The notes below the pieces were generated by a model. The model had not been told where the DNA came from. It saw nothing but the letters and a program-made list of their open reading frames with translations, and did no database searches. Positions 44,900-47,368 of a stretch of 64,000 bases of DNA are shown piece after piece. The stretch is from the sequence record PV654397.1. One strand, given 5' to 3'. This stretch comes from Escherichia phage WPEC5. Position numbers and translations under genes: made by a program. How positions within the stretch are numbered: the first letter of the stretch is position 1; every line of letters begins with the position of its first letter.

Positions 44900-44930
44900 T
44901 CCAGTACTATTATAGTACTGGATTTTTATT
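44900..44930. terminator. bidirectional terminator between array and membrane-protein operon
   Basis: TCCAGTACTATTATAGTACTGGA palindromic hairpin with T-runs on both sides. Confidence 0.6.
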
Positions 44931-45300
44931 ATAACATACGTTTTTTACGAATAGTATTGTGGATATTTTTTAAGTAGTTCACACCTTTACACAACCCATA
45001 AAATACACCAGCACATACACCAAATGCAGGTATCATACATGCAAACATCGTTATCAATTCCCACATCTCCATACCATCTTGATTCGGTCCAAGGTCAAAG
45101 ATAACAACCAAAACCAAACCCGTGATACTTAGCATATAATATGCCATAAAGATAATAAAAGAAACAATACCAACATCAGAGCGAACTGAATTTAGCATAT
45201 TATATACTGGGGTTACACAGAAGTAATACAATAACCAAATCAAAGAACCTAAACTAAACACAATAATAGTAATGATTGAAAATATTTCACGATAACTCAT
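44929..45300 (-). CDS. small polytopic membrane protein, family member (123 aa)
   Basis: ORF; 3-4 hydrophobic segments, basic C-terminal tail; last gene of 7-gene operon. Confidence 0.6.
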   Translation of the reverse strand: MSYREIFSIITIIVFSLGSLIWLLYYFCVTPVYNMLNSVRSDVGIVSFIIFMAYYMLSITGLVLVVIFDLGPNQDGMEMWELITMFACMIPAFGVCAGVFYGLCKGVNYLKNIHNTIRKKRML

Positions 45301-45301
45301 T

Positions 45302-45664
45302 TTAGTCCCTCGTACCTAAACGATCATGGATTTCGGAAATCTTATGATACAACCACGCCATCAACTCAACTGATGCACAGAGAATAACCACACACAGTGT
45401 TAGTGAACATATCATAATACCAAATGTTATAAAATTCAAACTCGATGTTAATAATGCAACCAGCATTAGAATAAAACCAAAATTGAATGCTGTACTCAAT
45501 ACAGTATATGCTGGACTATATCTCCTTTGTATTACATCATATATATTTGATAATGGTCGCTTATGGAAGTACTTCCCAATGCACACGAATGCATTCAGTG
45601 AGAAGATAAATGTATACGCCATTACCATTAATTGACCAATAAAAGATAATTCAATATTATTCAT
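45302..45664 (-). CDS. small polytopic membrane protein, family member (120 aa)
   Basis: ORF; hydrophobic segments; 1-nt spacing to neighbours. Confidence 0.6.
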   Translation of the reverse strand: MNNIELSFIGQLMVMAYTFIFSLNAFVCIGKYFHKRPLSNIYDVIQRRYSPAYTVLSTAFNFGFILMLVALLTSSLNFITFGIMICSLTLCVVILCASVELMAWLYHKISEIHDRLGTRD

Positions 45665-45665
45665 G

Positions 45666-46037
45666 TTATCCTCGTTTGCGGTATTTGATGCTTTGGTGCA
45701 TTCTCTGAAAATGTGGAACTAATACATATTGTACGGTTTGCCAAATTACCATCAGATTATGGACAGCACCACCGAGTAGACCAAACACTACACAGATAAT
45801 TGCCAGTACTGGATCACCATCTACCATACCCCATTTGAATATATGTAAAATCCATACAGTGATAAGTAGTAATAAACTAATCCAATACGTAGTAAAAAAT
45901 CCCGCATGTAATTCATAATCATCAGCAATTTCATCGTATACGGTTTCCAAGAAGGATACACAGAAGAACTTACCAATAATAACAATTGTACTAATAAACA
46001 ACATAGAAGTTAATATAATAAGTGCAATTTCCATCAC
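45666..46037 (-). CDS. small polytopic membrane protein, family member (123 aa)
   Basis: ORF; hydrophobic segments; real start may be the second codon (ATG) overlapping upstream stop. Confidence 0.55.
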   Translation of the reverse strand: MMEIALIILTSMLFISTIVIIGKFFCVSFLETVYDEIADDYELHAGFFTTYWISLLLLITVWILHIFKWGMVDGDPVLAIICVVFGLLGGAVHNLMVIWQTVQYVLVPHFQRMHQSIKYRKRG

Positions 46038-46348
46038 ATCCCTCGTTTACGCTTTTGATTGCGTCTAAATTCGGTTAGCCCACGACTAATCGGTGGCATC
46101 AGACTACATAAAAAAATAACAGTTGTTGGTAATAACATGAAGTCAATCATTGCTGTATTAACAGGTGGATCACATACCAAATAATACAAACAAGTAATAC
46201 TAATTATGGTTGACCCAATAAAAGGAATACAAAATTCTTTTATCTGTTTTTCAACATAATCAAACATCTTCAATACAAATAAAAATCCAACCCAACACAT
46301 AATAAAATAGAATGAATAAAGCGTGTAAATCAATGTTACGATATCCAT
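46034..46348 (-). CDS. small polytopic membrane protein, family member (104 aa)
   Basis: ORF; hydrophobic segments; overlapping start/stop with neighbours. Confidence 0.6.
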   Translation of the reverse strand: MDIVTLIYTLYSFYFIMCWVGFLFVLKMFDYVEKQIKEFCIPFIGSTIISITCLYYLVCDPPVNTAMIDFMLLPTTVIFLCSLMPPISRGLTEFRRNQKRKRGM

Positions 46349-46686
46349 TAGTACCTCGCATCAGGAACTTTAGCACGTAATTTATGAACGGCTGGGATCA
46401 ACAACAAACTTACATATGCAATAGTTGAACCCCAATAGAATACTAATATAATTGGTTCACCATTAGAACGTAAACCTCTACTAATCATTGAGTAGTGAAT
46501 AATAGGCATAAACATCGCCATAAAAAACCATGCGTGTAATTTTAATTGCAGCATGTTATCAGAGATGAATACTGAAATTGGTCGTTTGAAGAACCACATC
46601 AGAAAGTAGAACCCAGCACTAACAATATAGTACATAGTACTAACTTTCATATACCACGGCATTAAGTGTAAAAAATATTCCATCAT
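46348..46686 (-). CDS. small polytopic membrane protein, family member (112 aa)
   Basis: ORF; C-terminal RAKVPDARY tail. Confidence 0.6.
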   Translation of the reverse strand: MMEYFLHLMPWYMKVSTMYYIVSAGFYFLMWFFKRPISVFISDNMLQLKLHAWFFMAMFMPIIHYSMISRGLRSNGEPIILVFYWGSTIAYVSLLLIPAVHKLRAKVPDARY

Positions 46687-47030
46687 TCCTCCGGTATCTT
46701 GTTTCGAAGTTCAATCATAACACAACAAAGTTTAATGATCAAGTAAAAAACTACACATATCATACCTATGGTTCCATAAACGACTGAAAAAGCTGGTAGT
46801 GCTTTTCCGGCGAGAACAGCCACAACACATGCTATAAATGTTGATGCAAACAATGATTGATTAATGAAAGAATTCATAAAATCTTCACCATTACGCTTAT
46901 AGAATTGTCGTTTAAAATACCATCCTAGAAACATAACTACCCAAAATGTTACATAACCTGTTAGAATAATCCCTGCAAGTGAATGTGCGACAGGACTACT
47001 CCTTAAAAACTCAAGATAAGCTTCAATCAT
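46683..47030 (-). CDS. small polytopic membrane protein, family member (115 aa)
   Basis: ORF; WYFKR and C-terminal RNKIPEE. Confidence 0.6.
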   Translation of the reverse strand: MIEAYLEFLRSSPVAHSLAGIILTGYVTFWVVMFLGWYFKRQFYKRNGEDFMNSFINQSLFASTFIACVVAVLAGKALPAFSVVYGTIGMICVVFYLIIKLCCVMIELRNKIPEE

Positions 47031-47368
47031 TAGAAGTCTCCACGAATTTTTTCTCTACCATTAATGATGAGATTAAACAAGTATATCAGCACCCAAATTA
47101 GTAATCCAAGGAATACAATATATTGTGATATTGAGTTCAACTGTGGATTAGCACAATAAATTAAGTGTGCGATAAGACCAACAATTGCAAACATACCTTG
47201 GATAATAGTGAAAAGAAGTAGTGAAATGTTTCCATCAGGATACAGTTTGAAAACGATTTTCTTTTTAAAATACCATAGTACTACAACTAGTGCATGATAA
47301 AAGAAAAAACCAAACAGATAAATCAAAGTAATACTAAGCATTGTATCTGAATTAAAAAACTCAAGCAT
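47030..47368 (-). CDS. small polytopic membrane protein, family member (112 aa)
   Basis: ORF; first gene of operon; promoter TTGACT-N17-TACTAT and GGAG SD; C-terminal REKIRGDF. Confidence 0.6.
   Translation of the reverse strand: MLEFFNSDTMLSITLIYLFGFFFYHALVVVLWYFKKKIVFKLYPDGNISLLLFTIIQGMFAIVGLIAHLIYCANPQLNSISQYIVFLGLLIWVLIYLFNLIINGREKIRGDF

Follow-up and report, generated by a model that had tools for sequence, protein, structure and literature searches.

A ten-member family of small, predicted membrane proteins with deeply diverged haplotypes in Asteriusvirus-type jumbo coliphages

Introduction

Why would a bacteriophage carry ten versions of one small, apparently membrane-embedded protein? 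The question is raised by Escherichia phage WPEC5 (sequence record PV654397.1), from which a stretch of 64,000 nucleotides, hereafter called the window, was analysed. Its minus strand contains ten short genes in two clusters, seven at 44929-47368 (cluster 1, named m7 to m1 in the direction of transcription) and three at 55150-56185 (cluster 2, m10 to m8). A first-pass annotation of the window had read them as ten copies of one family forming a diversified set of membrane effectors, with superinfection-exclusion or immunity-like proteins given as an example. In this work, we find that the ten genes are paralogues. The description that we consider very probable is that of a lineage-specific family of early-type, non-virion proteins with three transmembrane (TM) helices, an outer N-terminus and an inner C-terminus, in which a conserved cytoplasmic module is joined to a variable hairpin, and which evolves by duplication and allele exchange.

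Across region 44800-48300, the Escherichia phages TH47, EC.P1, and fEgEco12 show 98% identity to the window, and the ~350-kb Asteriusvirus jumbo phages PBECO4 and 121Q show about 86%; the window is part of an Asteriusvirus-type E. coli jumbo phage genome of about that size. In all, some 35-40 Asteriusvirus records were matched. In annotated relatives, the ten genes are labelled “hypothetical protein”, except for one called “membrane protein”, and the searchable literature on Asteriusvirus, phAPEC6, Sharanji, and fEgEco12 does not mention the family. The proteins are nevertheless already in databases, unnamed and split, since nine of the ten match PHROG families (at 1e-47 to 1e-60, but 1e-3 for m8); the exception, m2, finds no PHROG below E=0.02. 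The families concerned (27618, 26405, 33258, 27396, 19046, 19454, and 19285) are all listed as “unknown function”, and a weak link leads to phrog_16874, a “membrane protein”. The kind of region, with small variable early genes lying between terminator/promoter cassettes, is also known. What is new is the ten-member paralogous family itself, together with its modular conservation and its deep haplotypes, in jumbo coliphages.

Ten Translationally Coupled or Clustered Genes

The minus strand contains all ten open reading frames (ORFs) at the places given by the first-pass annotation. Cluster 1 starts with m7 (47030-47368; 112 aa, three TM helices, tail ending in GREKIRGDF), which is followed by m6 (46683-47030; 115 aa, three TM helices, ELRNKIPEE), m5 (46348-46683; 111 aa, LRAKVPDARY), and the most divergent member, m4 (46034-46348; 104 aa, FRRNQKRKRGM). 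The last three genes have tails of what we call the H-type: m3 (45666-46034; 122 aa, ending in RMHQSIKYRKRG), m2 (45302-45664; 120 aa, EIHDRLGTRD), and m1 (44929-45300; 123 aa, ending in NIHNTIRKKRML), with which the cluster closes. The first family member of cluster 2 is m10 (55847-56185; 112 aa, EWRNKIPEK), and it is followed by m9 (55496-55837; 113 aa, TLRDNLPER) and m8 (55150-55494; 114 aa, KLRDKMPNR). Longer frames can be read from 46686 for m5, 55843 for m9, and 55518 for m8, and a GTG start is possible at 46037 for m3; the better starts are the ATG codons annotated in relatives, at 46034 (m3), 46683 (m5), 55494 (m8), and 55837 (m9).

The translational coupling claimed for cluster 1 is borne out. 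At its six junctions, of the forms TAATG, ATGA, or TAA-N-ATG, neighbouring genes overlap by up to 4 nt or are separated by at most 1 nt, and at each of them the Shine-Dalgarno sequence falls within the final codons of the preceding gene. As a result, this sequence also specifies the last 2-4 residues of the preceding protein's tail (GGAGGA gives PEE, CGAGGG gives RG). These residues may therefore be constrained at the RNA level and may be a by-product of dual coding. The Shine-Dalgarno sequences, the start/stop coupling, and ratios of nonsynonymous to synonymous divergence (dN/dS) of 0.1-0.6 between lineages establish the array ORFs as real genes.

Evidence for a Single Family

Pairwise comparison is a poor guide to the relationship of the ten proteins. 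BLAST identities among them are 18-27%, many of them insignificant, and PHROGs distributes them over seven families with faint cross-hits, neither uniting them nor giving them a function. Therefore, orthologues were collected from 121Q, G17, JNE01, Turkey5, A4, and metagenomes, and homology was assessed with profiles from which one orthogroup at a time was left out and with hhalign comparisons between orthogroup alignments, using shuffled sequences, reversed sequences, and background ORFs as controls.

Members of the held-out orthogroups scored 12-48 bits. The values below 20 bits include two orthologues of orthogroup OG7 (12.3-12.4 bits) and m4 (12.7 bits). Among the controls, composition-preserving shuffles reached maxima of 6-19 bits and reversed sequences at most 9 bits; background ORFs stayed at or below 11 bits, except that every run other than that of OG3 had a single outlier of unverified identity, at 15-30 bits. 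In the OG3 run, the top background score was 8.1 bits. The A4 orthologue of m4 reached 28.4 bits despite the low score of m4 itself, and the membership of m4 is therefore transitive. In hhalign, the groups of m8, m9, and m10 matched one another with probabilities of 97-98% (m10-m9 98%, m10-m8 97%). Further links were found for m5-m6 (95%), m6-m10 (91%), m2-m3 (89%), m6-m9 (81%), m1-m3 (75%), m7-m9 (71%), and m2-m6 (69%). Together they form a connected network, in which 25 of the 45 pairs exceed the best reversed-sequence control. Thus, the claim of ten copies of one family is directly supported, by profiles and hhalign, for nine orthogroups and by transitivity for the m4 group.

The alternative is convergence, in which unrelated small hydrophobic ORFs would resemble each other only in composition and three-helix architecture. 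The weak BLAST identities, the seven separate PHROGs families, and the many low-probability hhalign pairs, above all those with m4, would fit it. Apart from the two OG7 orthologues and m4, however, the leave-one-out scores exceed what shuffled and reversed sequences yield, and members from two metagenomic contigs outside the training set (L010 and L013) reach 22-47 bits. An alignment of 58 family members contains an invariant Phe within [WY][FY]F[KC][RK], a motif placed where TM1 ends on the cytoplasmic side, and a tail column occupied by Arg or His in 58/58 members, within L-x-x-[LI]-[R/H]-x-[KN]-[IL]-P. Recent duplicates are also evident: 121Q has an extra copy that is 46% identical to m7, and m4 is present as a pair in JNE01, as it is in Turkey5. 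Convergent similarity, largely refuted by the profile scores for nine groups, was rejected and is exceedingly unlikely.

Distribution, Copy Number, and Gene Order

The family profile was run on the 352-kb TH47 genome, the closest complete one, where exactly 10 of 1280 ORFs scored 55-84 bits, all of them in the two clusters; the next-best ORF reached 10 bits. The ten genes are the full family complement, and the family is restricted to Asteriusvirus-type jumbo phages. An exhaustive hidden Markov model (HMM) search of 1.84 billion representative proteins returned 30 clusters at E<=1e-3, which, except for one spurious repeat protein, are look-alikes of 89-127 aa. All matches that were traced lie on Asteriusvirus-type jumbo-phage contigs of ~324-351 kb or on fragments of these.

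The total per genome varies: 8 in A4, 10 in the window and in TH47, and 11 in 121Q and JNE01. A4 has a single cluster 2 member. In L013, the array comprises eight strong members and a weak one (13.4 bits), and the second cluster adds two more (24.6 and 12.4 bits). Orthologues of m7 are 81% identical in 121Q and 38-43% identical in JNE01 and A4. Two broken copies were also found: the m4 orthologue of 121Q is split into two ORFs (locus L003, 13139-13454), and the m6 orthologue of Salmonella phage SD-15_S21 is truncated to 74 aa (locus L004, 13862-14086). The family probably originated by tandem duplication, its copies being kept as distinct orthogroups.

Both L010 and L013 are deep-branching, with ATPases of 55-58% identity, and both show the same succession: an ATPase gene, then 8-9 family members, and then a convergent array of RCC1/Kelch beta-propeller genes. 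The order of members is shuffled in L010; in L013, three R-type members, one m4-like member, and four H-type members follow the ATPase.

Predicted Topology and Modular Conservation

The first-pass annotation had expected three to four hydrophobic helices. Hydropathy supports three in each protein and not four, and the topology prediction and family alignment that it had proposed as a check gave a consistent three-TM pattern in which the ten proteins align as homologues. In m5, TM1 and TM2 are rich in aromatic residues and fall below the hydropathy threshold; they align with TM1 and TM2 of the other members. AlphaFold2 models of m6 (mean confidence, pLDDT, 77.6; helices 2-11, 13-38, 42-53, 55-76, and 86-111) and m1 (pLDDT 69.2; helices 3-37, 42-69, and 79-122) agree on three long helices. 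Summed over the ten proteins, Lys and Arg number 3 at the N-terminus, 27 in loop 1, 5 in loop 2, and 45 in the C-terminal tail. By the positive-inside rule, this distribution indicates that the N-terminus is out and the C-terminus in, presumably across the inner membrane.

The recurring basic motif of the tail is real, but it has two forms instead of one. The form L-R-x-K-[IMV]-P is found in m5, m6, m8, m9, and m10 and, more loosely, in m7, while m1 to m3 have [IM]-H-x-x-[IL] followed by a run of Lys and Arg; the m4 tail reads F-R-R-N-Q-K-R-K-R. The most conserved columns all lie on the predicted cytoplasmic side. Within orthogroups, identity is 0.56 in TM1 vs 0.32 in TM3, and between the alleles of the window and 121Q, 11.7% of the positions from the N-terminus to the end of loop 1 are substituted, as against 27.9% of those from TM2 to the C-terminus (Fisher p=2e-10). 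The proteins thus appear to be built of a conserved module, composed of TM1 with its outer N-terminus, the cytoplasmic juxtamembrane motif, and a cytoplasmic amphipathic tail, and of a variable module, the hairpin formed by TM2, a periplasmic turn, and TM3.

Deep Haplotypes on Shared Backbones

The array is far more variable than the genes around it. In A4, the ATPase shares 96% identity with its counterpart in the window, denV 94%, and four more inter-cluster genes 93-96%, whereas the array proteins share 28-64%. The block of DNA identity with A4 ends at 47434, two bases from the stop codon of the ATPase gene. At least three haplotypes, mutually 26-67% identical in amino acids, can be distinguished: that of this clade and 121Q, that of JNE01 and Turkey5, and that of A4. 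When the window is compared with A4, synonymous divergence (dS) proves to be saturated in the arrays but amounts to 0.04-0.4 in the flanking genes. This difference, together with dN/dS values of 0.2-0.6, means that the arrays are old alleles held under purifying selection on recently shared backbones. Simple or recent positive selection was considered as the cause of the hypervariability and was rejected on the same grounds.

Exchange also occurs on a finer scale. In comparison with the 98%-identical phage vB_Ec-M-J, dS is 0.24 in m6 and 0.26 in m8 and at most 0.07 in neighbouring array genes. High dS in these two genes alone points to the exchange of single-gene alleles.

Promoters, Terminators, and Expression

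Upstream of the ATPase gene, the first of the cluster 1 transcription unit, lies a composite terminator/promoter cassette (48235-48267, minus strand) that consists of a GGGTTGAC-TTCG-GTCGGCCC hairpin, a T-run, and the sequence TG-n-TATAAT. Its -35 box, TTGACT, sits inside the stem of the UUCG-loop hairpin, and the extended -10 box comes after the T-run. The 33-nt cassette GGGTTGACTTCGGTCGGCCCTTTTTGCTATAAT has five minus-strand copies at <=3 mismatches (48235, 50030, 51903, 52626, and 56922), with zero expected, and a looser search with a 20-nt core finds seven, the extra ones ending at 59217 and 59997. The copy upstream of the ATPase gene is kept in 121Q, JNE01, and A4, i.e., in four lineages with the window. 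An identical cassette (56922-56954, minus strand) heads the operon containing cluster 2, which encodes a 137-aa secreted protein, a 91-aa protein, m10, m9, m8, and proteins of 85 and 126 aa, in that order; the same cassette also heads denV and other early-type units.

A second, weaker sigma-70-like promoter was found between the ATPase gene and m7 (47398-47426, minus strand; TTGACT, 17 nt, TACTAT). It contains an internal inverted repeat, GTACTAC..GTAGTAC, and an element TTGACAGTACTA...GTAGTACTATAAC occupies the same place between the two genes in 121Q and JNE01. At the other end of cluster 1, a bidirectional 12-bp hairpin terminator (44898-44924) separates m1 from the convergent last RCC1-like gene, and phage G17 has a terminator annotated at the equivalent position. 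The strong sigma-70-type promoters of both clusters would be read by the RNA polymerase of the host, probably at an early stage of infection; dependence on the host enzyme is described for a related jumbo phage (PMC7318152). The products are probably non-virion proteins: none of gp012c to gp018c, which correspond to the array and the ATPase in phAPEC6, was detected in the virion proteome of that phage by mass spectrometry.

This organization resembles the hyperplastic regions of T4-like phages, which are bounded by PeSL terminator/promoter motifs (Arbiol 2010, PMC2839356; Comeau 2014, PMC4122927). In both cases, a repeated hairpin terminator combined with an early promoter motif flanks small, uncharacterised, variable genes exchanged among close relatives, and, in line with the published definition (PMC4122927), a repeated stem-loop terminator with an early-type promoter heads both operons here. 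The differences are that the carrier is a 350-kb Asteriusvirus and not a T4-like phage, that the breakpoint between the window and A4, at the border of the ATPase gene and the array, coincides with another conserved promoter-like element and not with the cassette, and that the cargo is a ten-member paralogous family instead of unrelated ORFans.

A role in lysis timing was also considered. Class I holins of the lambda S type are proteins of ~95-130 aa with three TM helices, an N-out/C-in orientation, and a charged, basic cytoplasmic C-terminus. By hydropathy and charge counts, the array proteins are predicted to agree with them in each respect, with ~100-120 aa, three helices, the same orientation, and a basic tail, and could accordingly be holin or antiholin-like. 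They differ in lying outside a lysis cassette, as no endolysin or spanin gene adjoins either cluster (the neighbours are the ATPase gene, RCC1-like genes, and small genes), in being preceded by sigma-70-type cassette promoters like those at denV and the early-type units, and in matching no Pfam holin model at E<=1. To our knowledge, ten copies would be unprecedented for a holin. On these four grounds, the holin reading was rejected as very improbable.

Another possibility is host takeover: like other small phage early proteins, each member might inhibit one conserved protein of the host's inner membrane, for example a protease, a transporter, or a component of respiration or division. This would suit the early-type promoters and the probable inner-membrane topology, and the same ~20-kb region encodes other small secreted and membrane proteins. 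Conserved targets would not, however, be expected to keep three deep haplotypes on 93-96%-identical backbones, nor to favour variation in one hairpin, and we regard host takeover as unlikely.

The ATPase and the Question of a Joint Assembly

The gene directly upstream of cluster 1 (47436-48206, minus strand) encodes, as the first-pass annotation had stated, a P-loop ATPase. It is of the AAA type (Pfam AAA, 23.8 bits vs a cutoff of 21.2), matches phrog_1250 at 7e-103, and is a homologue of T4 NrdC.10 (PMC1524935), with 38% identity to T4-type NrdC.10 and matches in 1309 phage records. Against the PADLOC models, it gave only sub-threshold P-loop matches. Homologues carry the labels “thioredoxin”, “clamp loader”, and “FleQ regulator” in public phage records.

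Three deep lineages, with ATPase identities of 55-59%, have retained the succession of ATPase gene, array, and convergent RCC1-like array; ATPase identity to the window is 57-59% in JNE01/Turkey5 and L013, and 96% in 121Q and A4. The proteins could therefore be imagined as a hetero-oligomeric inner-membrane assembly, possibly with the NrdC.10-like ATPase, in which the cytoplasmic motifs would dock to an ATPase ring and the complex would serve genome entry, anchoring, or membrane remodelling. Besides the adjacency, such an assembly would account for the order of the seven orthogroups, which is the same in the window, 121Q, JNE01/Turkey5, and A4 and is preserved as subtype order in L013, for the coupled junctions, which suggest near-equimolar synthesis, and for the cytoplasmic location of the most conserved columns.

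Several observations oppose it. The ATPase homologue is widespread, and the nrdC.10 neighbourhood of the T4-type phage RB59, the only one examined, has no array-family gene flanking it. The T4 genes beside nrdC.10 (nrdC.7, nrdC.9, rI, and others) were tried as family members and rejected, the best scoring 3.8 bits. In A4, the near-identical ATPase stands beside a strongly diverged array, with the breakpoint at the stop codon of the ATPase gene, which speaks against co-evolution of the two. Cluster 2 has no adjoining ATPase and is reduced to one member in A4. Variable copy number, the shuffled order in L010, and the exchange of single-gene alleles point the same way. Thus, of the suggestion that the ATPase belongs to the system, adjacency within the lineage stands and membership is weakened. 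As the ATPase gene heads the unit yet lies outside the variable block and is conserved where the array has been replaced, it is treated here as a neighbour and not as a component. A joint assembly, with or without the ATPase, is the chief rival to the functional reading that we favour, but it seems improbable to us.

Candidate Functions: Exclusion or Counter-Defence

All the measurements are compatible with the broader proposal of the first-pass annotation, a diversified set of membrane effectors: one family, sigma-70-type promoters, hypervariability, purifying selection, and changes concentrated in one hairpin. Its example of superinfection exclusion by Imm- or Sp-like proteins fared less well, as it found no profile support and counter-defence is equally open. 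The proposed profile search for Imm/Sp-like families gave no match in Pfam, NCBIfam, or PADLOC. Pfam-A, with its Imm and holin families, yielded nothing at E<=1 beyond sub-threshold DUF/YesK similarities (best 19.9 bits vs a cutoff of 26.4), none of the ten proteins matched NCBIfam, and none of the nine scanned against PADLOC (m8 was left out) did so. No solved or viral fold matched the array proteins.

The reading that we favour is that the proteins act independently in exclusion or counter-defence, the two versions being about evenly placed; from the genomic context, we give it a probability of roughly 45%. In this model, the ten proteins would act separately in the cytoplasmic membrane, each binding a variable target embedded there through its variable TM2-TM3 hairpin, and a common activity or partner would be supplied by the conserved cytoplasmic module. 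Candidate targets are the genome-entry machinery of rival phages (superinfection exclusion) and membrane-acting effectors of host defence (counter-defence). Independence is supported by the copy number of 8-11, the broken m4 and m6 genes in some genomes, and the single-gene swaps of m6 and m8.

Known systems offer partial parallels. Imm and Sp of T4 are small cytoplasmic-membrane proteins that are made early from host-type promoters, non-structural, and dispensable. The probable membrane location, timing, and non-virion status of the array proteins would agree with this. There is, in contrast, no sequence relationship, no T4 protein is among the matches of the exhaustive search, and the array proteins have three TM helices and 104-123 aa and are ten paralogues in two arrays instead of single genes. 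The immunity proteins to pore-forming colicins of the E1 type are likewise small, polytopic inner-membrane proteins, and their specificity is thought to reside in intramembrane helix-helix recognition. The concentration of allelic variation in the TM2-TM3 hairpin recalls them, by analogy only: no profile match was found, the array is phage-borne, and no cognate toxin is known.

A number of points weigh against exclusion or counter-defence by independent proteins. The order of paralogue subtypes is the same in five lineages (the window, 121Q, JNE01/Turkey5, A4, and L013), and such a fixed order, combined with tight coupling, is more suggestive of subunits of a single assembly than of an arsenal with fast turnover. 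The split m4 and truncated m6 orthologues may be sequencing or assembly errors and not pseudogenes. The faster change of TM2-TM3 may be due not to target specificity but to the weak constraint under which plain hydrophobic helices evolve. No pairwise dN/dS exceeds 1 except for m2, which has a value of 1.9 against the 94%-identical vB_Ec-M-J allele, based on very few changes. Finally, neither experiment nor homology connects the family with any exclusion or anti-defence protein.

A more specific version would join the membrane arrays and the convergent, equally hypervariable RCC1-like array in a polymorphic attack-and-immunity system between competing jumbo phages. The TM2-TM3 hairpin would then recognise and block the entry apparatus or the ejected proteins of rivals with another haplotype, and frequency-dependent selection would maintain the deep haplotypes. 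We consider this extension distinctly improbable.

Neighbouring Loci

The RCC1-like block (26672-44893, plus strand) comprises about 16 paralogous beta-propeller genes of 370-410 aa each, convergent on cluster 1. Even the best cross-lineage matches among them reach only 25-31% identity, which makes this block hypervariable as well; six RCC1-like proteins were detected by mass spectrometry in phAPEC6 virions. Inside the array, on the opposite strand, lies a fast-diverging gene for a 216-aa protein (43041-43691, minus strand; phrog_34359), which is 46% identical in 121Q, 30% identical in JNE01, and absent from A4.

Between the ATPase gene and denV, the minus-strand region 48270-51900 is repeat-rich and absent from fEgEco12. 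Its tandem units of 148-207 bp encode modules of ~56 aa (KKTTEQFIKDAKEKRTDIDFEYSKVNYVN...TKVTIIDPEFGEF), with ORFs broken across frames, and the ORF at 50073-50405 has a weak MUG113/T5orf172 match. Since a homing endonuclease of the HNH or GIY-YIG type occupies this place in relatives, the region looks like a decayed or rearranged endonuclease locus.

Many other small envelope-directed proteins are encoded on the minus strand of the same early-type region. Signal-peptide-like N-termini occur at 56482-56895, 57323-57574, 59239-59535, and 61891-62115, and small TM proteins at 53404-53655, 59532-59795, and 61584-61820; all are unrelated to the array family. The 83-aa protein at 53404-53655 was tried as a member and rejected by the family-profile scan, and those at 59532-59795 and 61584-61820 gave no match in the window-wide scan at E<=10. 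In vB_Ec-M-J, the counterparts of the latter two are labelled “immunity to superinfection”, a label without Pfam or PHROG support in the ORFs of the window. The same holds for “lytic conversion lipoprotein”, which relatives apply to some of the small envelope proteins.

Significance

The occurrence of deep haplotypes on near-identical backbones provides a ready-made array-swap experiment with A4, 121Q, and this phage. If the genes merely encode fast-evolving accessory membrane proteins, the analysis still gives a clean definition of an unannotated family that had been split over seven PHROGs. If they act in exclusion or counter-defence, they would form a compact natural library of intramembrane binders, with a fixed scaffold and a variable hairpin, in coliphages that are therapeutic candidates. 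Such a function would bear on which Asteriusviruses can be combined in cocktails, and on how slow-replicating jumbo phages protect the cells they have infected from faster competitors.

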